From Coprobacillus sp. (GTDB taxonomy: Bacteria; Bacillota_I; Bacilli_A; RFN20; CAG-826): a DNA stretch of 64,000 nt. The DNA lies in NCBI GenBank assembly GCA_021203905.1, contig JAJQAG010000004.1:129939-193938 (forward strand), read 5' to 3'. The translations under genes and the position numbers were made by a program. Numbering within the stretch: the first letter of the stretch is position 1; each line of letters opens with the position of its first letter. The notes under the pieces were generated by a model. The model worked only from the letters and a program-made list of their open reading frames with translations. It made no database searches and was not told where the DNA came from. Shown here piece after piece: positions 8,095-32,000 of the stretch.

Positions 8095-8117
8095 ATCTCA
8101 AATATCAAATACATGAT

Positions 8118-8196: not shown

Positions 8197-9210
8197 TTAC
8201 TTTGTCCTCGCCCTATCAGAAGCTAAACGATAAGGATTCTCGTTCTTTGCGACTAAATGGATGGTGTCAACATGCTTATAGGCACGATGGACCGCTACTG
8301 GGAAAGCAAAGATTGAGAAGAGAGCGGAAACAAAGAACGCGGCAAGGAAAGCCACGATAACAAACAAGAGACTTACAAGGAAGAAGAATAATTTAATCGT
8401 AATTAAGAAGATTATTCCTCCTACTGACCAGCCAAAGATTACTCCTGGCATCCTCACAAATCCCCAGCTTGCAACCTCTGTAAACATCTCACCCACAAAG
8501 GTATTATCCACACCCACAGTGAAGACAAATGCAAGCATGACATACGCTCCGGCAATACTTCCGATGCAAAGTCCTAAGCAGAGACCGAGATTATCGTGCT
8601 CGGCAATACCGGCAACTAGCATCGCCACAAAGGTGATAGAAGCAAGGGTAATTGCCCAAGCCCAGGATCTCTTTCTTCTTCTTAGATGCTTTGATTTCTC
8701 ATTCGCAATCCAGTTTTCTCTTCTCTTCATGAAGCAATCGTCACAAAGAGTCCAACCTTTTCTTCCACCTTTCCCTGTGGTGGATTTCTTGACATGCATA
8801 GTTTCGCCTTCAAGAATTGGTTTTTGACAATCATCACAAACACCAATTTGTCTCTTTGTGAGTTGCTGATATAGCTCTTCATCAATGACTCTTGTGGGAG
8901 CACTTCCTTGTGGCGCCGCTTGACTAGTAGCGGGCGCACTTGTAGTTTGACCACTGCTCACAGGGCTTTCTCCTACAAGGGCACTTGCCGGTGATGTCGG
9001 TGTTACAGCTGTTTTTGTGGAGTATAAGTCATCAATCGTGACATTAAAAATTTTCGCGAGTTTCGCCACAGTATCGAGATCTGGTTCGCTATTACCAGTC
9101 TCCCATTTAGAAACCGCTTGTGTAGTTACGTAAAGCTGACTCGCGAGATCGCTCTGCGAGAGATTATGAAGCTTACGATAGTATTGGATTCTTTCCCCTA
9201 TCTGTGACAT
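8197..9210 (-). CDS. membrane-anchored XRE-family HTH regulator with zinc-ribbon and about 4 TM helices
   Basis: N-terminal HTH_3 signature (YYRKLHNLSQSDLASQLYVTTQAVSKWETGNSEPD), an S/P/A/T-rich linker, CDDC...CDDC, and a hydrophobic C-terminal half. Confidence 0.8.
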   Translation of the reverse strand: MSQIGERIQYYRKLHNLSQSDLASQLYVTTQAVSKWETGNSEPDLDTVAKLAKIFNVTIDDLYSTKTAVTPTSPASALVGESPVSSGQTTSAPATSQAAPQGSAPTRVIDEELYQQLTKRQIGVCDDCQKPILEGETMHVKKSTTGKGGRKGWTLCDDCFMKRRENWIANEKSKHLRRRKRSWAWAITLASITFVAMLVAGIAEHDNLGLCLGLCIGSIAGAYVMLAFVFTVGVDNTFVGEMFTEVASWGFVRMPGVIFGWSVGGIIFLITIKLFFFLVSLLFVIVAFLAAFFVSALFSIFAFPVAVHRAYKHVDTIHLVAKNENPYRLASDRARTK

Positions 9211-9280
9211 AACTCACCTCCTAGTTGATAGCATAAATATAAAGCGAAAGAGATAATAATGTAAATAATTTAACCTAAAA

Positions 9281-9316
9281 TCAACTAACGGTTGATAGAA
9301 ATCAACCATTGGTTGA
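9281..9316. promoter_or_regulatory. two tandem palindromic operators TCAAC-N5-GTTGA
   Basis: 9281-9295 reads TCAACTAACGGTTGA and 9302-9316 reads TCAACCATTGGTTGA, with centres 21 bp apart. They lie 70-105 nt upstream of the XRE gene and overlap a TTGATT -35 candidate on the minus strand. Confidence 0.6.
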
Positions 9317-9328
9317 CACCTTTATAAG

Positions 9329-9907
9329 TTAAAGGACACTCTCAATCATTCCTTTTAGAGTGGAGAGGGACTTTCTATCGCTAGAACTAGTAAAAAGATA
9401 TTGGGTGTCTTTTCCCACTTGATCAAGACTTTTTAGACAGGCGACTTTCTCCTTTTGGGTGAGCTTATCAGCTTTGGTAAAGACGATGATAAAGGGGATG
9501 TGATAGTAATTGAGATAGTCAATCATCTCTAAATCAATATCTAAGATTCCCCTTCGACTATCAATGAGAAGAAAAGTACATTTTAGGGTTTTTACTTTTT
9601 CAAAATAAGAGGTCATCAAGCAAGCAAAAATCTCAGCTAGCTTGACACCTTTTGCGGCGTATCCATATCCCGGAGCGTCCACTAAATAGAATGCATGATC
9701 GACATCAAAGTAGTTTAAAAGCGTCGTCTTGCCAGGAGTCGAGGAAACCTTCGCTATCCCCTTGTTTTCCACTAAAGCGTTAATGAGGCTACTCTTCCCG
9801 ACATTAGAACGGCCAACAAAAACCACCTCTTTACTATAAAGAGATGGCTTATTGGTCACATCGTTAACACTTTTAACAAAAGATGTATTTCGAAAATTAA
9901 TCATCAA
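9329..9907 (-). CDS. engB: ribosome biogenesis GTPase EngB/YsxC
   Basis: 192 aa with G1 GRSNVGKSSLINAL, DxPGYG and TKADK motifs. It follows lon, as in Bacillus. Confidence 0.95.
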   Translation of the reverse strand: MMINFRNTSFVKSVNDVTNKPSLYSKEVVFVGRSNVGKSSLINALVENKGIAKVSSTPGKTTLLNYFDVDHAFYLVDAPGYGYAAKGVKLAEIFACLMTSYFEKVKTLKCTFLLIDSRRGILDIDLEMIDYLNYYHIPFIIVFTKADKLTQKEKVACLKSLDQVGKDTQYLFTSSSDRKSLSTLKGMIESVL

Positions 9908-12232
9908 TTATTGAATGAATGCTGTGGCGACAGCATCATCCACAGTGGTCATAAACTTAATGGTTAAGTTATCTTTGACCTCATCAGGAAGTTCTTCAAC
10001 ATCCTTCTTGTTTTCTTTTGGAACGATGATGGTTTTAATCCCACTTCTTAGGGCTGCTAAGGACTTCTCACGAAGTCCACCGATAGGAAGAGCGTGACCT
10101 CTTAGAGTCACCTCTCCTGTCATCGCCACATCAGGATTAACGGGTTTGCGACTGAGACAAGAGATGATTGCTGTGGTAATGGCGACACCTGCACTTGGGC
10201 CATCTTTAGGAACCGCTCCTTCAGGAACATGGATATGAATATCGTTGTTCTCAAAGATATCGGGATCAATCCCGTATTTCTCAGCATTGGCTTTCACATA
10301 ATCAAGAGCGATTGAGCAGCTCTCTTTCATGACGTCACCAAGGTTTCCAGTAACGACAAATCCACCCCTTCCTTTGAAGTAGTTAACCTCGATTGGAAGG
10401 ATTTCTCCACCATATTGAGTGTAGGCTAAACCAGTCACCACTCCAATCTGCTGTTCTGGTTCCTTCTTACTCTCTTCAAAGATTTCGGTGCCGAGATATT
10501 CAACGACTCTCTTTTCATCGACATCGACATGTTTAATTGAAGGATCTTTGACAATAGAAACCGCAATCTTGCGGAGACAAGAAGCAATTCTTCTCTCTAG
10601 CTCACGAACACCCGCTTCTCGTGTATAGTAACGGATGATATATAGATAGGCATCATCACTAAAAGAAACTTGTTCAGTGGTTAAACCATTGAGTTCCACT
10701 TGCTTCTGATATAAGTGCTCTTTGGCAATCATGAGTTTCTCATATTCGGTATAAGAAGAGAGTTCAATGAGTTCAAGTCGATCTCTTAAAGGATCAGGAA
10801 TATCTTCAAGGCTATTCGCAGTGCAGATAAATAAGACATCGCTTAAATCATAGGGTTCTTCAATGAAGTTATCGTTAAAGGCATTATTTTGTTCAGGATC
10901 AAGCACTTCAAGAAGCGCACTACTAGGATCACCATGATAAGAATTGGCGAGTTTATCGATTTCATCGAGAAGGAAGACAGGGTTATTCGCGCCTGCTCTC
11001 TTCATCCCGCTGATGATTCTTCCAGGCATCGAACCGACATAAGTTCTTCTATGACCTCTAATCTCCGCTTCATCACTGATACCACCTAGGGAGGCTTTGA
11101 CAAACTTACGACCAAGAGCTCTTGCAATGCTCTTACTTAAAGAGGTCTTACCACATCCCGGGGGACCATAGAAACAGAGAATCGGGGATTTGAGATTTCC
11201 CGTCAACTGTTTGACTGCGAGATACTCAATAATTCTCTTTTTGGGTTCTTTAAGACCATAGTGGTCTTCATCAAGAATCTTCTCGACATTATCAAGATTA
11301 TCGTTATCTTCGGTTTTTTGATACCAAGGAAGAGAGAGAAGAGTGTCTAAATAAGAAAGCACTAAAGCGCCTTCCAAACTTCCTTGAGGCATCATCTCAT
11401 ACTTCTTCGCCTCGGCGTGAACTTTGGCTTTGACGTTCTCTGGATAAGGATTCTCATCCGCTTTCTTGACGTAAGCGTCGATGTCATCTCCTTCTCCTTC
11501 GTCCTCTCCAAGTTCTTTCTTAATGGCTTTAAGTCTTTCTCTTAAGAAGTAGTCTCTTTGACTCTTTTCCGTGCTCTCTCTAATTGAAGATTGAATATCT
11601 TTTTCTATCTCTGTTTGTTGTTTTTGAGAGAGAAGTCCATCGGTGACTAAATCACAGAGAGATTCAATATCTTCCGCTTCGAGTATCGCTTGCTTTCTCT
11701 CCGTGGGGAGAGTTAAAGCGCCCGCAATCATATAGCAAAATAAGTCAGCATTTTTAATTCTTCCAAGGGAATTAAGATTCTCTCTGGGCATGGTGGACAT
11801 GACATCAGGCATAGATTCCATAAGGGATGTTAAGGAATCGATAACCGCTTTCCCTTTCGCATCATCGAAAGGATGGAGTTTCACCACTGTCCCTTCACAG
11901 ACAAAGAACCCATCTTCATTCATAAAGACATTCTCTAAGGTGACCTTATCAAGAGGTTGCATTCTCACTTTAAGGTTCTTGCCTTTAGGAGAAGTTGAGA
12001 CAATCTTACATAATGTCGCACTTTTATAGACATCATCACCGGTGACCTCTTCAAGGTCACTGCTATACTGGGTCGTCACAAAAATAAGGGAATCGCTGCT
12101 CTCTTGCGCCGCTTTTATCGCGTTGAGAGAGATATCTCTACCCGCATCAATATTGGTGGTAACACCAGGATAAAGCACCACGCTCTTAGTGACTAAGAGT
12201 GGGAGTATCATTTTTTCGTCTTGTTCAGCCAT
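9908..12232 (-). CDS. lon: ATP-dependent protease Lon
   Basis: 774 aa with a LON N-domain, AAA+ GPPGCGKTS, and the protease motif PKDGPSAG. Confidence 0.98.
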
Positions 12233-12265
12233 TGTTATACCTCCTTACTAATTAAGACACTTATA

Positions 12266-13546
12266 TTAGTCATTCTCACGATATAACAAATCTTCAATAC
12301 GAGTAAATCTCACTTGGCTGCGGAATTGTTCAACTTGAGAAGCTAGAGCTTCTCTGACTTGATCAATTTCCATATGATAGGCTTCCGCCATCTTGGCGTA
12401 TTCAAACTCAAGATCGGCGTCTTCAATGACAATATCTTCAATTTGACCAATCTTGTCTAAGATAAAGAAGTTGGTGACGTTCTTCGTCGCTCTCTCACGG
12501 AGTTGAGCCATGAATTCATCTTCACTTTGACCAACGATTTGGAGATATGACTCAAGGTCAAAACCAGATTGGGCCATCTGCTCTTCCTGACTCTCTCTCA
12601 TAGAGTCCGTCTCTTGATCAATAATTTCATGAGGAATATCAATAGAAGAATGACTAATAATCTCATCTAAGACTTTACCAATGTAGTCACTCTTGAGTTT
12701 GTTGCTCTTCTGTTGAAGAAGATCTTGTTTAGTGTGCTCCCTAAATTGCTCAACCGTCTTAATGCCGTCATGGTTAAGACCTTCAATAAAGGCATCAGTT
12801 AATTCTGGTAATTGTTTGGTTTTCACTTCGTGAACATCTGTGTGAAACACGGCGTTCTTACCCGCGAGATTCTCCACATATTGTTCAGGGAAGGTAATCG
12901 CGACATCGACATGTTGATCAGGCTCCACGCCGACAAGTTGTTCTTCAAAACCCGGAACAAAGGATTGAGAACCTAATTCGAGTTCATAGTTGGTAACTGT
13001 CCCCCCTTCAAAAGGTTCTTCTTCACCCTCAAGGACTCCTACGGCATCGATGACGACGACATCGCCTAATTCCGCTTTACCCTCTTTAATTACAAGAGTA
13101 GCGTTCTCGCTTTGAGTCTTCTTGAGGCTCTCTTCCACTTCTTCATCACTGACTGTGGCTTCTTCTTTGCCCACTTCAAGGCCTTTATAAGGACCGATTT
13201 CAATGATGGGTTCAGTGGTGACCATAAACTTCATGGCTAACTCATCGTTAGAGCATTTTGTCACCATGACATCAGGTGAGGCAAAAGGATGAACATCCTC
13301 TTTTTTAATGGCCTCCACAAAGAGATCATTAATGATGGAGCTAATGGCTTCGTTCCACACTTTACTATCACTAATCTGTTCTTTGACGAGGTTTTGGGGA
13401 GCTTTGCCTTTTCTAAAACCTTTGATTTCGACATCTTTTGCGAGTTTATCAAAAGCTTTCTTTTGGGCGCCTCTCCACTGCTCGGCGTCAACCTCAACTT
13501 CAAGTTCAAGATGAGTATTATCTGTTTTTGTTACTTTGGTTTCCAT
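12266..13546 (-). CDS. tig: trigger factor
   Basis: 426 aa with the ribosome-binding motif GFRKGKAP and a central FKBP-type domain. It keeps the tig-lon synteny. Confidence 0.96.
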   Translation of the reverse strand: METKVTKTDNTHLELEVEVDAEQWRGAQKKAFDKLAKDVEIKGFRKGKAPQNLVKEQISDSKVWNEAISSIINDLFVEAIKKEDVHPFASPDVMVTKCSNDELAMKFMVTTEPIIEIGPYKGLEVGKEEATVSDEEVEESLKKTQSENATLVIKEGKAELGDVVVIDAVGVLEGEEEPFEGGTVTNYELELGSQSFVPGFEEQLVGVEPDQHVDVAITFPEQYVENLAGKNAVFHTDVHEVKTKQLPELTDAFIEGLNHDGIKTVEQFREHTKQDLLQQKSNKLKSDYIGKVLDEIISHSSIDIPHEIIDQETDSMRESQEEQMAQSGFDLESYLQIVGQSEDEFMAQLRERATKNVTNFFILDKIGQIEDIVIEDADLEFEYAKMAEAYHMEIDQVREALASQVEQFRSQVRFTRIEDLLYREND

Positions 13547-20632: not shown

Positions 20633-21085
20633 TTATTTGGATGATTCGTCATCCTTTTTTGCTAATTTATTCATCCAAAAAGGAACCTGAAAATAGGAGG
20701 CTTCATCCATATTCATCACAAAGCCATTCACCGTGAAGTTTTTCTTGATGTCTCCCTTTTTAAAGGTGAGAGTGTAAAAACCAAGCACCACTCTTTCAAT
20801 CCCCCCAAGATTGATAAAGTGATAACCCATAAGTCTCTTTTCTATTTCTTCTTTCTCCTTCTCATCAAGACAGAGGGAGTAGTCATATTTAAGAGAGTTA
20901 TATTCCCTGAGATAACTATCGACATCTCTTGAAGTGGGAGACATAAATAGTTCTCCGGTTTCTTCGTTTTTATCAACGAGAAGAAAGGGTTCATCATCGG
21001 TCTGATAAATATAGTTTCTTCCCCTGAATTTAGCGGTCAGTAAATAACGACCTTTTAAAAGATAAAAGTTCCCAATTTCTAACAT
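20633..21085 (-). CDS. hypothetical protein, 150 aa
   Basis: The ORF has GGAGG 5 nt upstream of the ATG. I recognised no motif. It is preceded by copy 2 of the shared 5' element. Confidence 0.55.
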   Translation of the reverse strand: MLEIGNFYLLKGRYLLTAKFRGRNYIYQTDDEPFLLVDKNEETGELFMSPTSRDVDSYLREYNSLKYDYSLCLDEKEKEEIEKRLMGYHFINLGGIERVVLGFYTLTFKKGDIKKNFTVNGFVMNMDEASYFQVPFWMNKLAKKDDESSK

Positions 21086-21089
21086 AAAA

Positions 21090-21122
21090 AACCTCCTTGT
21101 CTATATATTCATTAGGGAGGTT
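21090..21122 (-). repeat. copy 2 of the shared 5' element, embedded in an SD-sequestering hairpin
   Basis: 21092-21115 matches 5162-5186. On the mRNA strand, AACCTCC (21122-21116) can pair with GGAGGTT (21096-21090), which contains the Shine-Dalgarno sequence. The loop is 19 nt. Confidence 0.55.
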
Positions 21123-21148
21123 TAATGCTAATCTCGGACATCAAATTA

Positions 21149-22063
21149 TTAGTCACTGTTAAAAGGTTCGAGTGAATCGAGAATATTTTTAAAATATTCT
21201 GGGAGAGGACTATTAAAGGTCATCTCTTCTTTTGTAGTGGGATGAACAAGGGTTAACTGGTAGGCATGAAGCATCTGTCCATTGGGGCTGAGAGGTTTAA
21301 CATTCTTTTCACCATATAAAGGATCACTTTCAATGGGATAACCAAGATAGGCAAGGTGCACTCTAATCTGGTGAGTACGGCCGGTCTCTAGATCACATTT
21401 AATAAGGGTGTGACTCTTATATCTTTTAACCACTTCAAAGTAGGTCACCGCGCTTTTACCCCCTCTGACCACCGCTTGTTTCATGGGATACTTTTTATCT
21501 TTATCAATGGGTAAATCAATCTTCGCTTTATTCTCCTTAATGTTTCCTCTCACCAGAGCATAGTAACTTCTTCTCATCGTGTGATCTTCAAGTTGCTGTG
21601 AAAGAAAGGCATGAGCATAGTCATTCTTCGCCACACAGACGAGTCCAGAGGTATCTTTATCGATGCGGTGGACAATCCCAGGACGAAGATCCCCGTTTAA
21701 AGTGGAGAGTTGAGCGAAATGATAGGCAAGAGCATTGGCCATGGTGTGGGTCTCATTACTGATTCCAGGGTGCACTACCATACCCTGAGGTTTATCCACA
21801 ATGATAATGTCATCATCCTCATAGACAATATTAAGGGGAATATCTTCTTTAAGAAGAGTGACTTCTTTCTCGACCTCTTCCACACTGATTTCATCATCAA
21901 GTTTAGTGATATAAGAAGGTTTGACTTTAGTGTCATTAACTAACACTCCCCCTTCTTTAATAAGTGTGGCAATACTACTTCTGGACATATTAGGAAAAGA
22001 TAAGGCCAAGGCCTTATCAATTCTCATATCTTTAAGGTAATCGTCAACTTTTACTCTTTCCAC
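21149..22063 (-). CDS. rluD: RluA/RluD-family 23S rRNA pseudouridine synthase
   Basis: 304 aa with an N-terminal S4 domain and the catalytic motif HRIDKDTSGL. It follows lspA, as in Bacillus. Confidence 0.93.
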   Translation of the reverse strand: MERVKVDDYLKDMRIDKALALSFPNMSRSSIATLIKEGGVLVNDTKVKPSYITKLDDEISVEEVEKEVTLLKEDIPLNIVYEDDDIIIVDKPQGMVVHPGISNETHTMANALAYHFAQLSTLNGDLRPGIVHRIDKDTSGLVCVAKNDYAHAFLSQQLEDHTMRRSYYALVRGNIKENKAKIDLPIDKDKKYPMKQAVVRGGKSAVTYFEVVKRYKSHTLIKCDLETGRTHQIRVHLAYLGYPIESDPLYGEKNVKPLSPNGQMLHAYQLTLVHPTTKEEMTFNSPLPEYFKNILDSLEPFNSD

Positions 22064-22886
22064 GAGAGGTCTTCTCCTCTATGGTTTCTTTAGTTGGGGT
22101 CTCTACGGGGGCGACTACAACGTCCTCAACCTTTTCTTCTTCTTTTGGATTTGTGGATTCCTCTCCATGTATTAAAGCGTCCATCTGAGCTTGATGAAGC
22201 GCCACTTCGCTCTTAGCTTTCTCTTCTTTCTCTTTCTTACTTTGTTTTCCGTCCCAGACAAAGAGCCAAATGATAAGCATAATCACTCCGACGACTAAGC
22301 AGGCATCCGCCCAGTTAAAAGTGGGGAACTCATAATTTCCAAAGTGGAAAGCAATCCAATCAATCACTCCACGAGTGCTCCCACTGACACCTAAATAGGA
22401 GGAAGTATAGAAGGCTCGATCAATCAGGTTTCCAATACAGCCCGCAAGAATAATCATGCAACAAGCTCTCGCAAATTTGGGAATCTTTTTATATTTGACT
22501 GCAAAAACAGTAATGATTACTACTGCGGCAATAACACTAATACCAACAAAAACAATGATATTTGCAGTGTAATTACCAGTATCTATTCCAAAAGCCATCC
22601 CATCATTGATGACATATTTTACCCCAAGGAAGTTATTAATAAGCCAGATCTCTTCGCCTTCACTGCTATAGTAGTAAGGAACATAGTCCTTAATTAAAGT
22701 TTTGGTGACGATATCGATAATAAACATCAAAACGAAGAGCCAAATAAAAGACTCGAAGATCCACTTCCAAGTAGCATCCCATTTAGGATGTTTCTTGACA
22801 GTAGCGGTTACTTCTTGTTCGGAAACCTGTGCGCTCTCTACGGGTGTGGTTTCAATAGGAGTTTCTTCCTTGACTTTCTTTGGCAT
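22044..22886 (-). CDS. lspA: lipoprotein signal peptidase II with long terminal extensions
   Basis: The core has LspA motifs (NxGxAFG-like NDGMAFG, and IGNLIDR). I chose the start at ATG 22886, which overlaps the ileS stop (TAATG). There is an acidic/Lys-rich N-terminal extension of about 45 aa and a C-terminal extension of about 80 aa. Confidence 0.88.
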   Translation of the reverse strand: MPKKVKEETPIETTPVESAQVSEQEVTATVKKHPKWDATWKWIFESFIWLFVLMFIIDIVTKTLIKDYVPYYYSSEGEEIWLINNFLGVKYVINDGMAFGIDTGNYTANIIVFVGISVIAAVVIITVFAVKYKKIPKFARACCMIILAGCIGNLIDRAFYTSSYLGVSGSTRGVIDWIAFHFGNYEFPTFNWADACLVVGVIMLIIWLFVWDGKQSKKEKEEKAKSEVALHQAQMDALIHGEESTNPKEEEKVEDVVVAPVETPTKETIEEKTSRGKSKS

Positions 22887-25621
22887 TACTTTTTCTCCAT
22901 GAGATGATGACATCTTGGGCAAAGATATGAATCTTTCTCTACCTCTATGGCGTCATAATCATAGTTCCAACATCTCTCACAATAGTGTCCACTATGACGA
23001 TGGACATCAATGATTGAGTGGTTATATTCATCTCCTTTAATTTCTTCTTTATAGATATTAAATCCGGAGACGACAAAGAGATTCTTTAAATCTTCTTTGT
23101 TTATTTTATCAAATAAGTGGGAAATATTTACATCTTTTATGAAAATATTTACTTCCGCTTCTTGACTAGAACCAATAGTTCCTTTTTCTCTCTCCACTTC
23201 AAGTGCCTTTAAGACTTCACTTCTTAAAGCCTTAAAGAGTTCGTATTCCAAGAGAAGAGCGTCATCCACTTCCCCCTCTTTTGGAAAGTCGAGCAATTGG
23301 ACATATTCCTCTCTTTTCCCAGGAAGATTCTTATTAAATTCGTCCATGGTGAAAGGAAGAATAGGATTAAGTAATCTTAAGATAGATTCTGAGACGAGAT
23401 ACATCACTGATTGCATCTGGTTCCTTCTCTTTGAATCTTTTTCATCACAATATAAAGTGTCTTTAGCAATATCTAGATAGAAGGAAGATAAATCACTAGA
23501 AAGGAAAGTCGTAATATAACTCATTCCGTTCGCGTAGTTATATTCATCAAAACTCTTTCTCACTTCTCTCTCGACATAGTGTAAACGATTAAGGATATAG
23601 GTATCCACAAGGGTAAAATCACTAGTAGTATTCTTGGGATCAAAGTCCACAAGATTCCACGACATAAACTTTAAAGTATTACGGATTTTACGATAGACTT
23701 CACTTACTTGTTTAATGATATCTTCACTCATTCTCACATCGCTTTGATAGTCGATTGTCCCGCAGTAAAGACGAACGACATCGCTACCATACATATCTAT
23801 CACTTTAAGTGGGTCAGTACCATTACCTTTAGACTTAGACATCTTCTCCCATTTTTCATCCATGATAAACCCATGGGTGACCACGGCATCATAGGGGGCG
23901 TGACCATAGACTGCGGTCGAGATAATAAGGGAAGAATTAAACCATCCACGATACTGATCGCTCCCTTCTAAGTAGAGATTTGCGGGGAAATTTAAACCTT
24001 TATCGACGATATTGTACATAAAGGAAGAACCACTATCAAACCACACATCCATGATATCGACTTCCTTAGTAAATATCCCGTGGGGAGAATGAGAATTTTT
24101 ATAGCCTTTAGGGAGTAAATCTATCGGGTCTTTTTCATACCATACATTTGACCCATTTTCTCTCACTAATTTAATAATATTATCAAAGACTTCTTTCTCA
24201 ATAATGGGAGTCTTATCTTCACAGTAAATAATGGGGATAGGAACACCCCACGCTCTCTGACGAGAGATACACCAATCGCTACGATCTTTAATCATATTGA
24301 CCATTCTTACTTCTCCCCAACTTGGGTACCATTTTACCTTATGAATTTCATTTAGAAGCTTCTCTCTAATGGGTTCAATTGAGCAGAACCATTGATCCGT
24401 CGCTCTAAAGATTAAAGGTTTATTAGTTCGCCAATCATGAGGATAGGAGTGAATAAAGGTTTCATGTTTTAAAAGATGTTGATTCTTCGCGAGAATATCA
24501 AGAACGACATCATTTCCTTTCTCGTAGAATAAACCACTTAACTCTGCTCCGACACTCTCATCAAAATATCCCTTCTCATCCACTGGGCAATAAGGTTCAA
24601 TCCCATATTTTTGACAGACAATAAAATCATCCACACCATGTCCACCAGCGGTATGGACAAATCCCGTTCCAGCGTCATCGGTAACATGAGTTCCAAGAAT
24701 AATGGGAACTACTCTCTCATAGAAAGGATGAGAACATTTAACAAGTTCCACTTCTTTTCCCTTAAATTCCCGAATGAGTTTCACATCTTTAAGATTAAGT
24801 TCATTCACTAATTTATCTTTTAGAGAAGTAAGGAAGGCTAAGTTTCCTCTGTTTGTACAATACACTCCATAAGTAAAATCTGGATGAGCGGATATCGCCA
24901 TATTTGCAGGTAAGGTCCATGGGGTGGTGGTCCAAATAACCACTTGATCACCTTTGTTTAAGATGCCATTTCCTTCAATGACATCAAAGGCCACATAGAT
25001 AGAGTGGCTTTCAACATCTTTATATTCAATCTCTGCTTCTGCTAAAGCGCTTTCACTACTCGGGGACCAATAGACAGGCTTAAGGCCTTTATAGATAAGA
25101 CCATCAAGCGCCATCTTGGCGAAACACTCTAGCTGGCTAGCTTCGTATTCTTTTAAAAGGGTGAGATAAGGTTTCTTAAAATCTCCCACGACTCCTAAAC
25201 GTTGGATTTCTTCTTTTTGTCTTTCCACTTGCTCCAAAGCATAGTCTTTACATTGGTCACGGAACTGGACAATAGGTGTGGTCTTTCGATTGATTCCCAT
25301 CGCTGTGACTTTATTTTCAATAGGGAGACCATGGGTATCCCAACCAAAGACAAAGGGTGTTTGATAACCACACATATTCTTATAACGGATGGTGATATCT
25401 TTAAGCACTCGATTAAGCATATGCCCACAGTGCATATCTCCGTTAGCGTAGGGCGGTCCATCATGGAGAGTGTACTCTGGACACTCTTTTCTTTTCTCCA
25501 TCATTAAAGAGTAGAGATCCTCATCTAACCACTTCTTGATAAGAACTGGTTCTTTAGAAGGGAGGTTTCCTCTCATCTCAAAATTACTTTTATTCATCAG
25601 TAAGGTGTCTTTATAATCCAT
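22886..25621 (-). CDS. ileS: isoleucine--tRNA ligase
   Basis: 911 aa with a HIGH-type motif (PYANGDMHCGH), KMSKS, and C-terminal Cys clusters (CERC...CPRC). A T-box lies upstream. Confidence 0.98.
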   Translation of the reverse strand: MDYKDTLLMNKSNFEMRGNLPSKEPVLIKKWLDEDLYSLMMEKRKECPEYTLHDGPPYANGDMHCGHMLNRVLKDITIRYKNMCGYQTPFVFGWDTHGLPIENKVTAMGINRKTTPIVQFRDQCKDYALEQVERQKEEIQRLGVVGDFKKPYLTLLKEYEASQLECFAKMALDGLIYKGLKPVYWSPSSESALAEAEIEYKDVESHSIYVAFDVIEGNGILNKGDQVVIWTTTPWTLPANMAISAHPDFTYGVYCTNRGNLAFLTSLKDKLVNELNLKDVKLIREFKGKEVELVKCSHPFYERVVPIILGTHVTDDAGTGFVHTAGGHGVDDFIVCQKYGIEPYCPVDEKGYFDESVGAELSGLFYEKGNDVVLDILAKNQHLLKHETFIHSYPHDWRTNKPLIFRATDQWFCSIEPIREKLLNEIHKVKWYPSWGEVRMVNMIKDRSDWCISRQRAWGVPIPIIYCEDKTPIIEKEVFDNIIKLVRENGSNVWYEKDPIDLLPKGYKNSHSPHGIFTKEVDIMDVWFDSGSSFMYNIVDKGLNFPANLYLEGSDQYRGWFNSSLIISTAVYGHAPYDAVVTHGFIMDEKWEKMSKSKGNGTDPLKVIDMYGSDVVRLYCGTIDYQSDVRMSEDIIKQVSEVYRKIRNTLKFMSWNLVDFDPKNTTSDFTLVDTYILNRLHYVEREVRKSFDEYNYANGMSYITTFLSSDLSSFYLDIAKDTLYCDEKDSKRRNQMQSVMYLVSESILRLLNPILPFTMDEFNKNLPGKREEYVQLLDFPKEGEVDDALLLEYELFKALRSEVLKALEVEREKGTIGSSQEAEVNIFIKDVNISHLFDKINKEDLKNLFVVSGFNIYKEEIKGDEYNHSIIDVHRHSGHYCERCWNYDYDAIEVEKDSYLCPRCHHLMEKK

Positions 25622-25912
25622 ACTCTCTCCTTAAAAAGAAATAAAAAGCATCCATATCTAAGGACGCTTTCGCGCGGTACCACCTTAGTTCTAGAGAACC
25701 CTCTCTAGCGCTTCATTAGCCTAATAACGTTTAGAAAACGGAGACTTACTCTTAGTTCAGTACTCATAAGAAGGAGTGATATCTATACATCTCTTTCTTG
25801 TTGACCTTTCCATCCACTGCCAACTCGCTGTAAGGGGGTGATATATAAACTTGTCTCCTAATTGCTTACTAACAAGCAAGATTATTATAGAAATAAAGTT
25901 TCTATAACGCAA
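25622..25912 (-). promoter_or_regulatory. T-box riboswitch leader of ileS with its promoter
   Basis: Promoter is TTGCGT (25912-25907), 17 nt, TATAAT (25889-25884). The T-box AACTAAGGTGGTACCGCGCG lies at 25690-25671, with a terminator AAGCGTCC...GGATGCTT plus TTTTATTT. ATC followed by A in the stem I region is the candidate Ile specifier. Confidence 0.9.
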
Positions 25913-25924
25913 GGAAGTTTATAA

Positions 25925-26392
25925 ATAGTATTAGACAGACTATGCTCTAATATCGATAAGTATGTTCCACTTTTAAGCAACTATTTTGCAGTGGCAACCC
26001 CAGATTACAGAACTTATCAAGATATGAACGATAATGTAATCCGTTACAACACTTACAGGAATCGATGGATTGGTGCGTATCTACAAGAACGGGGAATCAA
26101 AGTCATTCCAACCATTGGGTGGGGTAGTAAGCAAACCTTTAAGTATGCCTTTTCCGGGGTGGAAAAAGGAAGTGTCGTGATTGTCTCCACAATTGGTTGC
26201 CAAAAAGTTAAGAAAGATTTTATAAGGGGGTATAACAAGATGCGAAAAGTTATTAAACCATCGATAGTTATCGTTTATGGGAAACTAATCCCAGGAATAA
26301 AAGGCAAAATCATAAATTTTGCTTATGAAGACGCATTTTTAGGACATGATATATCCAATCATATCGAAAATATCAAAAAGGGGGTAAAATAA
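25925..26392 (+). pseudogene. 5'-truncated DUF4417-like gene remnant
   Basis: The frame is open from the stop at 25922-25924. ..PDYRTYQDMNDNVIRYNTYRNRWIGAYLQERGIKVIPTIGW..GSVVIVSTIG matches my recollection of the DUF4417 core (PDFS..Y..YRNRW..G..VIPT). There is no ATG and no SD; only a GTG at 25991. The N-terminal part of the family is missing. Confidence 0.55.
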
Positions 26393-26394
26393 AC

Positions 26395-26805
26395 ATGGGT
26401 GGACGAGGAGCATTTGCCGATTCTAACAATCAAAATTTCACCTTTGTTGAAGGTGGCCAAACTTACCGAACAATTAAAAAATATAAAGGGTTTGAAACAA
26501 TCGAAAAAATTGATCAAACCAAAAATACTGCTATCCCTTTTTATTCCCATTCTGGAAGCAACATATATGTAGTAGTCCAACAGAATAAGATTAAAAATAT
26601 AACAGTGTACGGAGAAAACCACAATGTAGTTACAAGTATTGATTTTTACAAAAAGCACCACGGAGTGATTCCCCATACGCATCCTCATGGGATTCATACA
26701 AATGATGGACCCGGAATCCCACCAACAGAAGAAGAATGGAAGTTGATACGATACATCAAAAAGAAAACGAGGTTAAAATGTTTCAATGATCAAAGCACCA
26801 ATTAA
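26395..26805 (+). CDS. small His-rich protein, possible orphan toxin module (136 aa)
   Basis: The ATG is preceded by AAGGGGG. The ORF starts MGGRGAF and contains the His cluster KKHHGVIPHTHPHGIHT. It is followed by two immunity-like paralogues. I could not confirm a family. Confidence 0.5.
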   Translation: MGGRGAFADSNNQNFTFVEGGQTYRTIKKYKGFETIEKIDQTKNTAIPFYSHSGSNIYVVVQQNKIKNITVYGENHNVVTSIDFYKKHHGVIPHTHPHGIHTNDGPGIPPTEEEWKLIRYIKKKTRLKCFNDQSTN

Positions 26806-27283
26806 TTATTATGGCGAATGCAAATCAATTAATATCTTCTATGACTACTACTATCCACTAAAGAGTGTTGAAGATTTTTGCAATGTCTGCATGGTTTTTG
26901 AGTACGATGGTGTCCTCTATCTTCTAGATGAGGAGATGGTGGATCCAGACATATTTCCTAACAATAAAAATGACGGATGCGATTACTCCATGAGAAGAAT
27001 CTACCGCTTGAAGTTACAAGACGACGGAACTTACCAAAGAACTTTACTTGCTACATATAGAACACTAGCAAAAGTCCTCACGGAATGGAAAGTAGACGGT
27101 GTCCCCTTAGAATCCATGTTTGGAATGGACAATATGAGAGTAATCGAAATGTATTCTCGAGAGTATCGAGAAGAAAACACACTAAACTTTAAAGAATATG
27201 CCGAGAGGTATAAGAGAAATAATGAACCAAACGACAAAAAGACCAAAAAACACAAAAAGAAATGGTGGGAAAAATTGCGATGA
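26786..27283 (+). CDS. immunity-like protein, paralogue 1 (165 aa)
   Basis: It overlaps the upstream ORF by 20 nt. It shares about one third of its residues with the next ORF (FY..YY, Y.G..Y...EE, FPN...DG.DY..R..Y.L...DG, LL..YR, W..DG.P) and has a Lys-rich tail. Confidence 0.6.
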   Translation: MIKAPINYYGECKSINIFYDYYYPLKSVEDFCNVCMVFEYDGVLYLLDEEMVDPDIFPNNKNDGCDYSMRRIYRLKLQDDGTYQRTLLATYRTLAKVLTEWKVDGVPLESMFGMDNMRVIEMYSREYREENTLNFKEYAERYKRNNEPNDKKTKKHKKKWWEKLR

Positions 27284-27663
27284 CAGACAATCACTTTGAT
27301 TCACTAGATGAATTCTACAATTTATACTATGAACGCCGCCCTTATCCTGGACCCGATTACATGGATATGGATTTCTATTACAAAGGAAAGTTTTATTGGT
27401 ACATGGAAGAAGGCATCATGAGAGAAGATTTTCCAAATTTATACCACGATGGGGGAGATTATGCCGTTAGAATTGCTTATGAATTGATACCAGAAGATGG
27501 GAAGCCGATGTCGAAAGAAAAGTACGATTTTACAAAGTGCAAGTGTATATTATTAGGAAAATATCGCTTGATGGAGGATATTCTCAATGATTGGATAATC
27601 GATGGGAAGCCATTTAAAGATGTCCTCATTGATAAAGAGACACATATTTACGATATTAGATAG
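27280..27663 (+). CDS. immunity-like protein, paralogue 2 (127 aa)
   Basis: I chose the start at ATG 27280, which overlaps the upstream TGA (ATGA) and has GGTGGG 10 nt upstream; the track start at 27262 is also possible. It is a paralogue of 26786..27283. Confidence 0.6.
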   Translation: MTDNHFDSLDEFYNLYYERRPYPGPDYMDMDFYYKGKFYWYMEEGIMREDFPNLYHDGGDYAVRIAYELIPEDGKPMSKEKYDFTKCKCILLGKYRLMEDILNDWIIDGKPFKDVLIDKETHIYDIR

Positions 27664-27671
27664 TTCCTATT

Positions 27672-27705
27672 AAAAAAAAAGGTGGCTGGGCCACCTTTTA
27701 TTTAT
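27672..27705. terminator. bidirectional terminator (island / ftsZ)
   Basis: Perfect 9-bp stem AAAGGTGGC-TGG-GCCACCTTT (27678-27698), with an A-run upstream and a T-run downstream. It abuts the ftsZ stop codon. Confidence 0.85.
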
Positions 27706-28808
27706 TGTTTCAAGAAAGAGGGGAGAATGTTAGATTTATCTAACTCCTCCTTCTCTTCACTCTTTTCTGGCTCACTCTCTTCAATGGGAGCCTCCTCAAT
27801 AGTAGGACGAGTAATTGGATCCACAAGCAAGGGTTGAGAGAAATCCATCTCTTGTTCAAAGTCCGCGGCAATGACACTGACGATGATTTCATCATCGAGT
27901 TGATCATTAATGCTCACTCCAAACTTGATATCAATATCTCTTCCCGCGGCTTCGATAAGATATCTCACCGTATCTTGAGCATCAAAGAGAGAGACATTAG
28001 TGCCACAAGTCACAGAGACAATGGCGCGTCTTGCTCCAGCAACACTGGCTTCTAGTAAAGGAGAGGAGATGGCGCTTAAAGCGGCGTCTTTTGCCCGATT
28101 AGGTCCTTTTCCATAACCACTACCAATGAGTCCCACTCCAGAATGTTGAAGGGTATTTCTCACATCCGCAAAATCGAGGTTGATAACTGCGGGGAGTAAG
28201 ATGAGATTCACCACTGTCTTCACAGATTGCGATAAGACTTTATCGCTTTCCGCAAAAGCACTAGGAATAGGAATTGTTCCCACATTTCTAAGGAGTTGAT
28301 CGTTAGAGACGACAATAATTGAGTCGACATTTTCTTTAAGTTTATTTAAGCCATCGATGGAGTTATTGATCCTTGTCTGTCCCTCAAAGGTAAAAGGACG
28401 AGTGACAATGGCCACGACTAGCGCACCTGCATCTTTCGCGATACGAGCGACCACCGGAGCGGCGCCTGTACCAGTGCCACCACCCATACCGGCAGCGATA
28501 AAGACAAGATCCGCACCATTAACCATCTCTCTAATGGCGTCAGCGCTCTCTTCTGCGGCTTTTTCTCCGACTTCAGGAACACCCCCGGCTCCTAAGCCTC
28601 CCGTCGTGTTCTCTCCTAAAACTGTCCTATTTGATGCTTTAGAAGAGGAGAGAGCTTGTTTATCAGTATTCAAAACATAGAAGGTGACATTAGCAATTTC
28701 ATCATCAATCATACGATTGACAGCATTGCTTCCTGCTCCCCCCACACCAATGACGACAATTTTGCATGCGGGTTCAAAATTATCTAAGTCATAGTTCCCA
28801 CTAGCCAT
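27702..28808 (-). CDS. ftsZ: cell division protein FtsZ
   Basis: I trimmed the track ORF to ATG 28808 (MASGNYDL...), which is preceded by AAGGAGG. It has GVGGAGSNAV and the tubulin signature GGGTGTGAAP. Confidence 0.97.
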   Translation of the reverse strand: MASGNYDLDNFEPACKIVVIGVGGAGSNAVNRMIDDEIANVTFYVLNTDKQALSSSKASNRTVLGENTTGGLGAGGVPEVGEKAAEESADAIREMVNGADLVFIAAGMGGGTGTGAAPVVARIAKDAGALVVAIVTRPFTFEGQTRINNSIDGLNKLKENVDSIIVVSNDQLLRNVGTIPIPSAFAESDKVLSQSVKTVVNLILLPAVINLDFADVRNTLQHSGVGLIGSGYGKGPNRAKDAALSAISSPLLEASVAGARRAIVSVTCGTNVSLFDAQDTVRYLIEAAGRDIDIKFGVSINDQLDDEIIVSVIAADFEQEMDFSQPLLVDPITRPTIEEAPIEESEPEKSEEKEELDKSNILPSFLKQ

Positions 28809-30030
28809 TGTTACGACCTCCTTTAGAAGATGTACGTGTTCCAGTAGGATTGGCTGCTGGACGAGTATCTTCATAAATATTCTTATATTTAGAGTTTGTT
28901 AAAACTGCTCCTAAGACATTGTAGAGATTGGGTTTTCTCGCTCCTAAACTCGTGGGTACGGGAGTGGTGATATTCTTTGAACTCACTATCGGAGAGAGAT
29001 AGGAGACGAGTCCATTAAGACGGGCTCCACCCCCGATTAAGACCATCGGGAGAGAGCGGTAAAAGTCTTTCTCTTCCTCTTCATAACCCGCGAGTAAGAC
29101 ATCTATCGTCGTATTGAGATGATTGATGAAGGTTTCAAGTTCTTCTTTGACAAGATCATTTAGTTCAGAAGCATAACAGACCTTCCCCTCTTCGCTTGTA
29201 TAGATGGGAACTTGGAAACGCATTTGCTTCTTATCATAGCCATAGAGACATTTAAGCTCTTCGGCTTTTTCCATAGAAACACTAAGATGATGAGCGATAT
29301 GTCTCGTAATACTATTCCCACCCCAGGCAAACTGTTGAGAGGAATATAGCACTCCATCGCCAATAAGAGAAACAGTAGTCATCTCTCCACCGATATCCAC
29401 TAAGAAGTAAGCACTAGGGGTTGTGGGTTGAGTAGCGAGTAGTTCGCAAGCGGCAAAAGGTGCCACTACCATTCGAGAGATAGATAATCCCGCTTCAAGA
29501 ACCGCTCTACGATAACTATCAATAAGAGGGATGGGGAGAGTGTGAAGTTTCGCTCGCATGGTTAGTCCCGTAGAAACTAAACCAATAGGAGGGGTTATAT
29601 ACTCCTTCCCATCATCGACAATGAAGGTGTCAGGGATAATATCCACACAATCATTATTGAGTTCCGCCGGAAATTTATCTTTTCTAATCAAAGCGTATAA
29701 GTTCTTAATATCTATCGTATCGATTCTTCCTTCTGGAGAGACAATCGTCGTGAACTTATCATTGTTAAAGACCACAAGACCATTAGGAGGAAGCACTAAG
29801 ATAACCTCTTGAACGAGGACCGAGATCTTTGCATCAGGATCTTCAAACTTGGTTAAAGAACTAATCTCTTTGACAAGTTTGGCTTTATCAACGATGGAAC
29901 CATTCTCGATGACACCAGAAAGAGGTTTCTCCTTCACATAGATAACATACACTTGTCCTTCATTTTCAAAACCTTCAAGAAGTTTGAGAGATGAATCCGA
30001 AATTTCAAGAACAAAGACAGGTTTTTTCAT
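28801..30030 (-). CDS. ftsA: cell division protein FtsA
   Basis: 409 aa with an actin-like ATPase fold (VDIGGEMTTV, IGGGARL). It lies immediately upstream of ftsZ with an 8-nt overlap. Confidence 0.92.
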   Translation of the reverse strand: MKKPVFVLEISDSSLKLLEGFENEGQVYVIYVKEKPLSGVIENGSIVDKAKLVKEISSLTKFEDPDAKISVLVQEVILVLPPNGLVVFNNDKFTTIVSPEGRIDTIDIKNLYALIRKDKFPAELNNDCVDIIPDTFIVDDGKEYITPPIGLVSTGLTMRAKLHTLPIPLIDSYRRAVLEAGLSISRMVVAPFAACELLATQPTTPSAYFLVDIGGEMTTVSLIGDGVLYSSQQFAWGGNSITRHIAHHLSVSMEKAEELKCLYGYDKKQMRFQVPIYTSEEGKVCYASELNDLVKEELETFINHLNTTIDVLLAGYEEEEKDFYRSLPMVLIGGGARLNGLVSYLSPIVSSKNITTPVPTSLGARKPNLYNVLGAVLTNSKYKNIYEDTRPAANPTGTRTSSKGGRNNG

Positions 30031-30164
30031 ACTGCTATTTTATAACTTTCGACTAATATTATACAAGAAATTAGTAAAATCATAAAATATAATTTTATAG
30101 TCTACTAAATATCTACTATTTTTCAACTTTTAAAAGTGGTCAGGCCCCACACTACTACGATGAT

Positions 30165-30210
30165 CGAAACAAAAGAAAAACCCCATACATAAGGGGGATA
30201 GTACGGGGTT
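30165..30210 (-). terminator. terminator of the mraZ-rsmH-ftsL-like operon
   Basis: On the minus strand: AACCCCGTAC...GTATGGGGTT (10 bp, one G-U pair) followed by TTTTCTTTTGTTT. Confidence 0.75.
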
Positions 30211-30333
30211 AGAGGCAGGAAGACACCTGTCTTAAGGAGGTTATATTATAACAACATTTCTGTCGATATAATTAACTTACATTACCAGTATTTTAACATT
30301 GATATTTTATCTCGTCAATACCTAAAAATAACC

Positions 30334-30552
30334 TTATTCATCAAATGGGGATTCGTAAGATAAAACATCAATAGAAGAGGTTTCAAGATTCTCCACGACT
30401 TCTGTGTGAACAGTCGAGGTTTTGTTATTTGAAAGATATGTAGGGATAGTGATGATAGCGCCGATTGAAACGAACAATAAAGTAATGAAACTGATGTTTC
30501 TTAAGCGATAGTAGCTTGCGGTCCTGTTGTACTTAATAAGTTTGTCTTTCAT
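30334..30552 (-). CDS. FtsL-like small bitopic membrane protein (72 aa)
   Basis: I chose the start at ATG 30552, preceded by AGAGGA. It has a single TM helix (ISFITLLFVSIGAIITIP). Its position directly after rsmH is where ftsL sits in dcw clusters. The call rests on position only. Confidence 0.55.
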   Translation of the reverse strand: MKDKLIKYNRTASYYRLRNISFITLLFVSIGAIITIPTYLSNNKTSTVHTEVVENLETSSIDVLSYESPFDE

Positions 30553-30562
30553 CGTGTTTCCT

Positions 30563-31501
30563 CTACTTTCTTTCAATCACTCTTAGCTTTGCGCTCTTAC
30601 ATCTGGGATTAGCTTCCACCTCTTCTTCACTCGGGGTGATCACCTTATTGTTGATTAACCTATAATCAACATCCCTATTTATCTGCGGTCCATTGATTCT
30701 ATCTCCTTGGACGACGGCATACTTTCTAAATGTTTGTTTCACTATCCTATCTTCTAGGGAATGGAAGGATATTACTGCAAGTCGGCCACCACTATCTAAG
30801 AATGGCAAGACCTTCTCTAAGGTTTCTCTTAGGACATTGAGTTCATCGTTTACTTCAATACGGAGAGCTTGAAATACTTGTTTAGCGGGATGACCGGGTT
30901 TAGATAACTCCTTACTGGGCTTGCTCTTTTTAATGATCTCTACGAGTTCAAGTGTGCTTTCAATCGGTTTCTTTTCTCTTTCTAGGACAATGTTTCGAGC
31001 AATGCTTGAGGAGTATTTCTCTTCTCCATATTCTTTGAATATCTGGGTGAGTCTCTCTTGCGAATAGGTATTAACAACTTCTCTTGCGCTCAAGGGATTG
31101 TCTTTATCCATTCTCATGTCAAGAGGTCCATCTTCTCGATAAGAGAAGCCTCTCTCACTCTCATCAAACTGGTTTGAGCTGACCCCAAGATCCATAATCA
31201 CTCCATCGACAGAAGTTGTTCCTAACTCCTTTAAGATGGTGTCAACATGGACGAAGTTATCTTTGATAAGGGTGAATTTCTTTGAGATGTGATTAAGTCT
31301 CTCACTAGAGGCTTTTATCGCCTCTTCATCTTGATCAACCCCGATAAGATAACCTGTCGTGAGACTCTCAAGGATTCGTGAAGCATGTCCTCCTCTTCCT
31401 ACGGTGAGATCAAGATAGATTCCTTCGGGCTTAACTTTTAAGAGAGAAATAGTCTCCTCAACTAGGACTGGTAGATGTCCGTAATCCTTATCACTCGCCA
31501 T
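30563..31501 (-). CDS. rsmH: 16S rRNA (cytosine1402-N4)-methyltransferase RsmH
   Basis: I trimmed the track ORF to ATG 31501 (MASDKDYGHLPVLVEE...). It has the SAM-binding DLTVGRGGH and DLGVSS motifs. Confidence 0.96.
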   Translation of the reverse strand: MASDKDYGHLPVLVEETISLLKVKPEGIYLDLTVGRGGHASRILESLTTGYLIGVDQDEEAIKASSERLNHISKKFTLIKDNFVHVDTILKELGTTSVDGVIMDLGVSSNQFDESERGFSYREDGPLDMRMDKDNPLSAREVVNTYSQERLTQIFKEYGEEKYSSSIARNIVLEREKKPIESTLELVEIIKKSKPSKELSKPGHPAKQVFQALRIEVNDELNVLRETLEKVLPFLDSGGRLAVISFHSLEDRIVKQTFRKYAVVQGDRINGPQINRDVDYRLINNKVITPSEEEVEANPRCKSAKLRVIERK

Positions 31502-31922
31502 GATCAATGAGTTCACCTGCGACTTCTTCATAAGAAGAATCAGCTTCTTTTTCGTATTCGAGATACTTCGTACGATCCCAAATTTCAATGTGGTCCACCA
31601 CTCCAAGGATGAAAATATCTTTTCCGATTCCATACCTGGTGATGAGGGCAGTGGGTATCGTCACTCTTCCAAGCTTATCAACCTCTAGTTCATAGGTAGA
31701 AGAGAGTTGGGTTCTTATGTAAGAGCGGCTCTCCTTCTTTTGAAAAGGAAGAGAGTTTATTTCGGTAATTAAGTTATTAAATGCTTCGGCGCTATAAAGA
31801 GAAAGCGCTCCATCATATCCCTTCATGATATAAAGAGGAGAGGAGACCTCTTCTCTCATCCTTTTAGGGATGACAATGCGGTTCTTTTCATCAAGTGAAT
31901 GTTCATAACGACCAAAAAACAT
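31491..31922 (-). CDS. mraZ: transcriptional regulator MraZ
   Basis: The start is ATG 31922 (MFFGRYEHSLDEKNRIVIP...). It has two SpoVT/AbrB-like repeats with DxxxR motifs and is the first gene of the dcw cluster. Confidence 0.95.
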   Translation of the reverse strand: MFFGRYEHSLDEKNRIVIPKRMREEVSSPLYIMKGYDGALSLYSAEAFNNLITEINSLPFQKKESRSYIRTQLSSTYELEVDKLGRVTIPTALITRYGIGKDIFILGVVDHIEIWDRTKYLEYEKEADSSYEEVAGELIDHGE

Positions 31923-31926
31923 ATTT

Positions 31927-31989
31927 ACCACTTTTTCCCACTTTTTACCACTTGACTATATTATAAATAGCATTTTAAAAGTTTGACAA
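31927..31989 (-). promoter_or_regulatory. mraZ promoter and three MraZ-box direct repeats
   Basis: Promoter is TTGTCA (31989-31984), 18 nt, TATAAT (31965-31960). Downstream lie three AAAGTGG(T/G) repeats with an exact 10-nt period (31953-31927, minus strand), ending at the start codon. Confidence 0.7.
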
Positions 31990-32000
31990 CACTTATTTTG

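Follow-up and report, generated by a model that had tools for sequence, protein, structure and literature searches.

The window analysed here is a stretch of 64,000 nucleotides from a metagenome-assembled genome of Coprobacillus sp., and it carries, between ileS and ftsZ, an island of four plus-strand open reading frames (ORFs) in the region 25925-27705 (coordinates are window positions unless another locus is named). The island is what remains of a five-gene cassette with phage homologues, which was inserted at this junction in one lineage and shortened by a deletion, and whose genes bear the marks of purifying selection. Related cassettes, in which a DUF4417 gene and a small histidine-rich protein stand beside one or two acidic proteins, recur in unrelated chromosomal contexts among gut Firmicutes. 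We tentatively suggest, with somewhat less than even confidence, that this is a phage-derived module consisting of an effector, such as a toxin, and immunity- or antitoxin-like partners that neutralise it. For this genome, the island represents a partly deleted accessory insertion that lies outside the division and translation gene set. The features of the island and its boundaries are as follows:

22886-25621, minus strand: ileS.
25657-25872, minus strand: T-box leader of ileS (Rfam RF00230), the left boundary, outside the island.
25917-25930: deletion junction, 14 bp without counterpart in the related assembly L004 (blastn).
25931-26392, plus strand: ORF1, 3' remnant of a DUF4417 gene, frame open from 25925 (Pfam PF14386, phrog_8680).
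26395-26805, plus strand: ORF2, 136 amino acids (aa), histidine-rich, starting MGGRGA, of the mainly phage family phrog_9479; candidate effector or toxin, remotely Ntox24-like.
26786-27283, plus strand: ORF3, 165 aa, paralogue of ORF4; candidate partner or neutraliser.
27280-27663, plus strand: ORF4, 127 aa from the ATG at 27280 (133 aa if from 27262); candidate partner or neutraliser.
27677-27699, both strands: bidirectional intrinsic terminator of ORF4 (plus) and ftsZ (minus), the right boundary.

The cassette is found in complete form in the sister genome L004, one of three related assemblies (L004, L005 and L006) that carry the island at the identical ileS/ftsZ junction. L004 encodes there an XRE regulator (XRE/CI-type helix-turn-helix (HTH) protein of 294-317 aa), DUF4417 (221 aa), ORF2 (136 aa), ORF3 (162 aa) and ORF4 (127 aa). 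In blastn alignments, window positions 20698-25916 correspond to L004 positions 1-5204 and window positions 25931-31999 to L004 positions 6655-12718, such that the window has 14 bp in place of approximately 1450 bp of L004 (5205-6654). Lost with these are the XRE regulator gene and ~68 codons from the start of DUF4417, and the window thus keeps ~1.75 of the ~3.2 kb of the cassette, with ORF2, ORF3 and ORF4 intact. A five-gene phage-derived cassette thus entered the ileS-ftsZ gap in an ancestral member of the Coprobacillus-like lineage, and a single deletion of ~1.45 kb took away the regulator with its promoter region as well as the initial third of DUF4417. In the L004 regulator (5368-6321), the XRE HTH is fused to a C-terminal portion of ~200 aa. 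The match of this portion to RmrA profiles is confined to their N-terminal half, and FEIAK stands at the place of the HExxH of M78 peptidases; this C-terminal part may be an inactivated ImmA-like domain.

The truncation is evident from ORF1 itself, which matches the Pfam family DUF4417 (PF14386) with 114.9 bits (cut-off 28.9) over profile positions 69-176 of 183, and phrog_8680 over positions 72-204 of 221, with the L004 orthologue covering positions 8-175 of PF14386. Because the PF14386 match begins only at position 69, ORF1 is a 5'-truncated DUF4417 gene, in line with the original prediction, made from the sequence alone, that the first ORF is a truncated remnant. Its sole possible start codon, a GTG at 25991, is not preceded by a Shine-Dalgarno sequence. 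In an alignment with full-length DUF4417 proteins, the conserved F/D residues of the N-terminus are missing from ORF1, and the untranslated upstream part of its frame has a Cys in place of the nearly invariant Trp of the family.

The four ORFs lie between the ileS T-box leader and the bidirectional ftsZ terminator, and run opposite to ileS, ftsZ and ftsA, all of which are on the minus strand. ORF1 and ORF2 are separated by 2 nt, ORF2 and ORF3 overlap by 20 nt, and ORF3 and ORF4 share an ATGA overlap if the latter starts at 27280, which is the likely start given this overlap with the ORF3 stop codon and its agreement with the start of the L004 orthologue. The T-box leader is matched over model positions 1-219 of 219 with 84.4 bits and an E value of 7e-19; since the Rfam gathering score is 93, default annotation would miss it in spite of this E value. 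The terminator hairpin has a 10-bp stem with a T-run on each strand and is kept in L004 at 8395-8418. Thus, the ORF coordinates bear out the tightly packed plus-strand arrangement against both flanking units that had originally been described, and the flanks named there, a probable T-box leader and the ftsZ terminator, are likewise recovered. The ileS promoter placed at 25884-25912 (TTGCGT-17-TATAAT, running from 25912 to 25884 on the minus strand) stands as a putative element that can be read in the sequence but lies below the threshold of the promoter scanner. The A/T-richness of the island, previously judged by eye, is real but small, with a GC content of 0.361 compared with a window mean of 0.392 (standard deviation 0.017), corresponding to the 5th percentile of equal-size windows. 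As had also been stated, no tRNA, no integrase or other recombinase ORF and no meaningful flanking direct repeat was found at the window island; nor is there a recombinase ORF in the L004 cassette.

That three closely related assemblies share these genes at one and the same junction could reflect a conserved core operon of this bacterial group between ileS and ftsZ. Comparison of the junction in relatives had been named beforehand as a check. A scan for FtsZ among GTDB species representatives yielded ~40 relatives (FtsZ 57-79% identical) that keep the order ftsA-ftsZ-ileS-lspA, none of which has a homologue of ORF1-4 at the ftsZ-ileS junction. Only 130-500 bp separate ftsZ from ileS in 22 of the ~40, and in the remainder the junction is occupied by unrelated inserts (lipoprotein or nuclease genes, spoIIGA-sigE-sigG, metabolic genes). 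The island is therefore a lineage-specific insertion at a junction that varies among related Bacilli, and homologues of the island genes are found at other chromosomal sites in other bacteria as well as in phages. A core operon is thereby refuted at the family level and retains next to no probability, and the assignment of the island as a non-housekeeping, phage-derived insertion is upheld by its phage homologues and by the ~40 relatives without ORF1-4. We note that the insert-bearing gaps (within L014-L059; for example L017 9101-11919, L039 9068-12088 and L044 9146-14515) are themselves diverse, one insert being a 5-kb metabolic one and others encoding large lipoproteins or nuclease-like proteins.

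Comparison of the window with L004, which are ~85% identical at the DNA level, gives ratios of nonsynonymous to synonymous divergence (dN/dS) of 0.055 for the DUF4417 remnant, 0.087 for ORF3 and 0.045 for ORF4, next to 0.03-0.12 for rluD, ileS, ftsZ, ftsA and rsmH. Of the cassette genes, ORF2 evolves fastest in protein sequence (67% identity, dN 0.216), with a saturated dS that yields no ratio. The low dN/dS values indicate that selection maintained the cassette genes during the greater part of the period since the lineages split, and the 1.45-kb deletion is therefore comparatively recent. A second type of lesion is present in L005 and L006, which come from different samples and are otherwise nearly identical to L004 over the aligned ORF2 region: one G is missing in ATGGGTGG, giving ATGGTGG, which shifts the ORF2 frame at codon 2 (L005 ~72 and L006 ~2164, equivalent to window 26395-26400). 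The L006 contig covers the cassette from end to end and still has gene calls for all the other cassette genes, and L005 keeps ORF3 and ORF4. Together, the deletion in the window and the frameshift in L005 and L006 indicate that the cassette is being disabled differently in different strains. The frameshifted alleles fit an ORF2 that is a dispensable or harmful effector, but are anecdotal. We also observe that dS is higher in the island genes (1.2-1.9; window 25931-27663 against L004 6655-8384) than in the flanks (0.67-0.99), which could stem from weaker codon constraint or from past recombination with a more distant allele.

These data bear on whether the island is simply inert prophage debris, the genes of which are now functionless, as the phage origin of the genes, the deletion in the window, the frameshifts in L005 and L006, and the lack of mobility genes and of a consensus upstream promoter might lead one to suppose. 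However, ORF3, ORF4 and the DUF4417 remnant evolve at dN/dS values of 0.05-0.09, that is, in the range of ileS, ftsA and rluD, and the same compact gene set occurs without other phage genes in at least five further unrelated chromosomal contexts. Since such a recurrent set is not the product of random decay, we consider debris quite improbable. The earlier description of the island as decayed therefore applies to the single 1.45-kb deletion and the truncated ORF1, but not to ORF2-4, which are intact, nor to ORF3 and ORF4 in particular, which have dN/dS values of 0.09 and 0.05.

ORF2 contains eight histidines, six of which fall within residues 88-101, and is followed by two tandem paralogues, as the original prediction had noted. 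It matches phrog_9479 from profile position 1. A phmmer search of 1.84 billion representatives returned 54 matches, of which 53 are 58-154 aa long, the full-length ones aligning from residue 1; the single outlier is a protein of 768 aa with a weak match in multiple stretches. A profile search expanded the family to 951 relatives, and the 120 listed are all 123-180 aa, carry no Pfam domain and are mostly from Caudoviricetes. No ORF2 homologue was found in the plasmid collection. That short homologues align from residue 1 indicates that ORF2 is a native stand-alone protein. The proposal that it is the orphan, detached tip of a polymorphic toxin is accordingly rejected, given that its homologues are short and show no fusion to delivery domains. 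The family shares an invariant N-terminal MG[GS]RG motif, with conserved positions at M1, G2, R4, G5, P48, Y58, Y72, D83, H88, H94 and H96, and is mostly basic. An AF2 model of ORF2 is beta-rich with one C-terminal helix and has no match among solved structures; sequence and profile searches of the PDB with the ORF2 family, as well as with DUF4417, were also without match. Two further identities were considered and dismissed: a small terminase or late activator, because ORF2-bearing phages have a separate terS and the gene sometimes lies in the middle of the late operon, and an HNH or JAB enzyme, because family members do not share the HTHPHG string and there is no structural match.

In phages, the ORF2 family is encoded beside DUF4417, within or next to the packaging and head module (terS, terL, portal and MuF-like genes). 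The gene orders in the loci read are:

Gut phage contigs: TerS, TerL, SPP1-type portal, 146-aa protein, ORF2 homologue, DUF4417, MuF-like minor capsid protein.
Roseburia phage Jekyll and related contigs: DUF4417, ORF2 homologue, TerL.
Streptococcus phages A25, A1, Str01 and many Javan prophages: DUF4417 or ParB_N-DUF4417, ORF2 homologue, terS.

The gene pairs A25 gp22-gp23 and Javan23_0032-0033 are direct homologues of ORF1 and ORF2. Indeed, DUF4417 and the ORF2 family are adjacent in every locus for which the flanks were read, phage or chromosomal and in either order, and some DUF4417 proteins of phage loci carry a fused ParB N-terminal domain.

ORF3 and ORF4 are paralogues with 29% identity over 109 aa (BLASTP, E 4e-12). 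ORF4 has a pI of 4.7 and belongs to a family that is acidic throughout (pI 4.4-5.4), whereas the ORF2 family is mostly basic. ORF3, the L004 orthologue of which is 82% identical, combines an acidic core (pI 4.6) with a Lys-rich C-terminal tail. This tail of ~40 residues (KKTKKHKKKWW; window 27160-27283) is shared by the L004 orthologue but is not present in ORF4 or other family members. A model of ORF4, built from three sequences, reached a pLDDT of 66.7 and has no structural neighbour.

The translationally coupled combination of DUF4417, an ORF2 homologue and one or two ORF4-family genes is seen again in four further contexts that are unrelated (L002, L095, L096 and L097), and a related arrangement is found in L103-L105:

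L002: XRE, M78 peptidase, DUF4417, ORF2 homologue, ORF4-like; beside pstS and pstC.
L095: DUF4417, ORF2 homologue, two tandem ORF4-like genes, HTH.
L096: XRE, M78, DUF4417, ORF2 homologue, ORF4-like; two serine recombinases nearby.
L097: DUF4417, ORF2 homologue, ORF4-like; beside hsdR.
L103-L105: XRE, M78, DUF4417, ORF2 homologue, small acidic downstream gene; between crcB and aconitase.

The genes of the cassette, read directly as ORFs, overlap or abut in the window, L004, L002, L095, L096 and L097, and at each of these loci the stop codon of the ORF2 homologue is overlapped or directly followed by an ORF4-family gene, a positional sign of a possible partnership between the two. Recognised occurrences of the ORF3/ORF4 family are confined to chromosomal cassettes that also encode DUF4417 and ORF2, and XRE or XRE and M78 genes are present in most of these cassettes. 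It is absent from the phage collection searched, save for MT837061, a mislabelled bacterial record, and within IMG/VR it occurs only at L096 and L097, both times beside ORF2 homologues. The exception is locus L002 itself (GenBank MT837061.1, 'UNVERIFIED: Bacteriophage sp.'), which looks bacterial, with pstS and pstCAB flanking the cassette. Thus, the acidic partners accompany ORF2 in the chromosomal cassettes, but none accompanies it in the searched phage collection. Serine recombinases adjoin the cassette only at L096. The cassette regulators resemble CapH/CapP and RmrA in PADLOC.

A basic, histidine-rich protein, one or two translationally coupled acidic partners that were recognised only in chromosomal cassettes, where a phage's own lytic control does not apply, and the regulators of most cassettes together present the anatomy of an effector restrained by binders. 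On this basis we tentatively favour an effector/neutraliser module, in which ORF2 would be an effector, possibly toxic, that derives from the phage family encoded beside DUF4417 in the packaging and head module, and is perhaps a histidine-dependent enzyme with a remote relationship to Ntox24. The acidic ORF3 and ORF4 proteins would bind it as cognate partners and so render the chromosomal ORF2 harmless, and in complete cassettes the XRE regulator or the XRE and M78-peptidase pair would hold the operon off until a signal is received; the truncated copy in the window may still be expressed. The layout of a toxin followed by duplicated immunity genes, as originally predicted, is thus retained insofar as the gene order recurs in unrelated genomes, although no known immunity family is matched. 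If ORF2 is an effector and ORF3 and ORF4 its neutralisers, they would add two new protein families to the toxin/immunity repertoire of gut Firmicutes. They would also provide the first functional handle on the DUF4417 and phrog_9479 pair, a pair without a known role that many temperate phages of streptococci and clostridia carry, among them the classical transducing phage A25.

Several observations weigh against this interpretation. The main unexplained point is DUF4417, which accompanies the ORF2 homologue at every locus read, yet has no role in a two-component toxin/immunity model; the papers found in a literature search on DUF4417 give no function. No ORF3/ORF4-family gene was recognised in the phage loci examined, which leaves phage ORF2 proteins there with no recognisable partner. 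ORF3 and ORF4 match no Pfam family at E <=1, including Imm50, Imm53 and other Imm families, and nothing in NCBIfam or PADLOC, where the regulators are the only cassette proteins with a match. The gene downstream of ORF2 in L103 aligns with the ORF4 family with an hhalign E value of only 0.15, such that membership is not demonstrable. A promoter scan revealed no consensus plus-strand promoter upstream of the window island, and this copy may therefore be silent. Finally, the similarity of ORF2 to a known toxin family is consistent but stays below threshold: no Pfam family is matched above its cut-off (NCBIfam and PADLOC were also empty, for ORF2 as for ORF1), the best Pfam match, Ntox24 (PF15529), reaches 18.6 bits against a gathering score of 24, the ORF2 family consensus reaches 17.9 bits against the same cut-off, and for the subfamily nearest to the window the consensus does not match Ntox24 at all.

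Ntox24 is nevertheless the commonest Pfam match among members of the ORF2 family (7 of 26 at E <=0.1 and 28 of 56 at E <=1, the best being 1.3e-5). With scores below threshold and no match for the nearest-subfamily consensus, we treat the similarity as a lead rather than as membership. Ntox24 has been described as an all-beta domain with conserved Y, H and H residues that is linked, among others, to MuF (phage head) toxins, where it forms the C-terminus, and that also occurs as a stand-alone toxin in toxin-antitoxin (TA)-like pairs, and as a possibly metal-independent RNase (PMC3482391). ORF2 is similarly small, with a beta-rich model and conserved Y58, Y72, H88, H94 and H96 that may correspond to the residues of the profile, and the island has a small partner gene directly downstream, as in the TA-like pairs. 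In contrast to Ntox24, ORF2 scores below the family cut-off, is never fused to a delivery domain, starts with the invariant MG[GS]RG motif and is accompanied by DUF4417 at every locus read, and the partners in the island are not Imm50 or Imm53. A comparable relationship is seen with the MuF polymorphic toxins of temperate phages, for which small downstream ORFs have been proposed as immunity genes (PMC5576092). Both are encoded in the head modules of Firmicute siphophages, with an effector-like domain beside portal and MuF-type minor capsid genes, but ORF2-family proteins are separate genes rather than C-terminal extensions of MuF, phage ORF2 is without a recognisable immunity gene, and the cassette in the window sits in the chromosome and is not part of a prophage.

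Alternatively, the cassette may be an autonomous phage-derived conflict module rather than a simple toxin/immunity pair, with DUF4417 and ORF2 acting jointly on DNA or phage assembly, for example as an anti-phage defence regulated by XRE/M78, as a decoy that interferes with packaging or in DNA modification, and with ORF3 and ORF4 as sensors or adaptors. Such a joint action would account for the adjacency of DUF4417 and the ORF2 family at every locus read and for the ParB N-terminal fusions of DUF4417, which are enriched in prophages and for which a role in phage-host conflict has been suggested (bioRxiv 10.1101/2025.10.10.680097). It would also agree with the resemblance of the regulators to CapH/CapP and RmrA, which are controllers of defence systems, and with the location of L097 and L098 next to type I restriction-modification genes. 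However, no PADLOC model matches DUF4417, ORF2 or ORF3/ORF4 and there is no known defence phenotype, the window copy has intact ORF2-4 without an intact DUF4417, and an acidic partner beside a basic protein together with frameshifted ORF2 alleles fit a toxin and its neutraliser at least equally well. We therefore consider a conflict module unlikely, albeit a serious contender. In L098 (20-872 and 1185-4575), the direct neighbours of a truncated DUF4417 and a phage-type ORF2 homologue are a tyrosine recombinase and hsdS/hsdM, which, together with hsdR next to the L097 cassette, may hint at an association with defence islands.

Comparison with systems controlled by XRE and M78/COG2856 modules (RmrA of RosmerTA, CapH/CapP of cyclic-oligonucleotide-based anti-phage signalling (CBASS), ImmR/ImmA) shows that L002, L096 and L103 likewise start with XRE and M78 genes, and that the HTH fusion of L004 matches the N-terminal half of RmrA. 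Unlike in those systems, however, DUF4417, ORF2 and ORF3/ORF4 match no known effector, and both the HTH and the Zn-peptidase are absent from the window, where the regulator is deleted. The recurrent compact cassette with XRE/M78 regulators could reasonably represent a defence or addiction module that is as yet undescribed. For ORF1 and ORF2, the closest known counterpart is the phage pair of DUF4417 (or ParB_N-DUF4417) and phrog_9479, which is similarly adjacent and often overlapping, and sits just ahead of terS or between the genes for portal and minor capsid, but which lacks both ORF3/ORF4-family partners and XRE/M78 regulators.

More speculatively, DUF4417 and the MGGRG-type histidine-rich protein could form a widespread phage effector pair, in which MG[GS]RG would serve as a tag for capsid loading or for docking to portal or MuF proteins, and the chromosomal cassettes would represent a new regulated conflict system. 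They would then act either in abortive-infection defence or as a toxin delivered by phage particles together with its immunity, and the window would hold a partly disabled copy. We regard this combined proposal as improbable. In this connection, we note that several unrelated small proteins of phage head modules share an MGGRG(G/A/S) start, namely the 146-aa protein, the ORF2 family and a 182-aa protein, the last of which also contains an HNHPEG string resembling the JAB/RadC motif. Proteins with this start are encoded at:

L010: 5561-6001, 6001-6393 and 7124-7672.
L003: 2293-2634 and 2634-3026.
L001: 5717-5989 and 6001-6396.

MGGRG could be a shared N-terminal tag for targeting or processing. 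In Roseburia phage Jekyll, one protein of this type reads MVVNLQFF-GGRGGSSG, where NLQFF resembles the cleavage motif of Prp, the protease of ribosomal protein L27; the Prp motif is used by the capsid and scaffold proteins of phage 80alpha (PMC5744158). In phage A25 (L101, KT388093.1), the annotated start of A25_23 at 3444 is seemingly 27 nt too far downstream, and initiation at 3417 (ORF 3417-3827) gives the N-terminus that is invariant in the family, MGGRGASSG.

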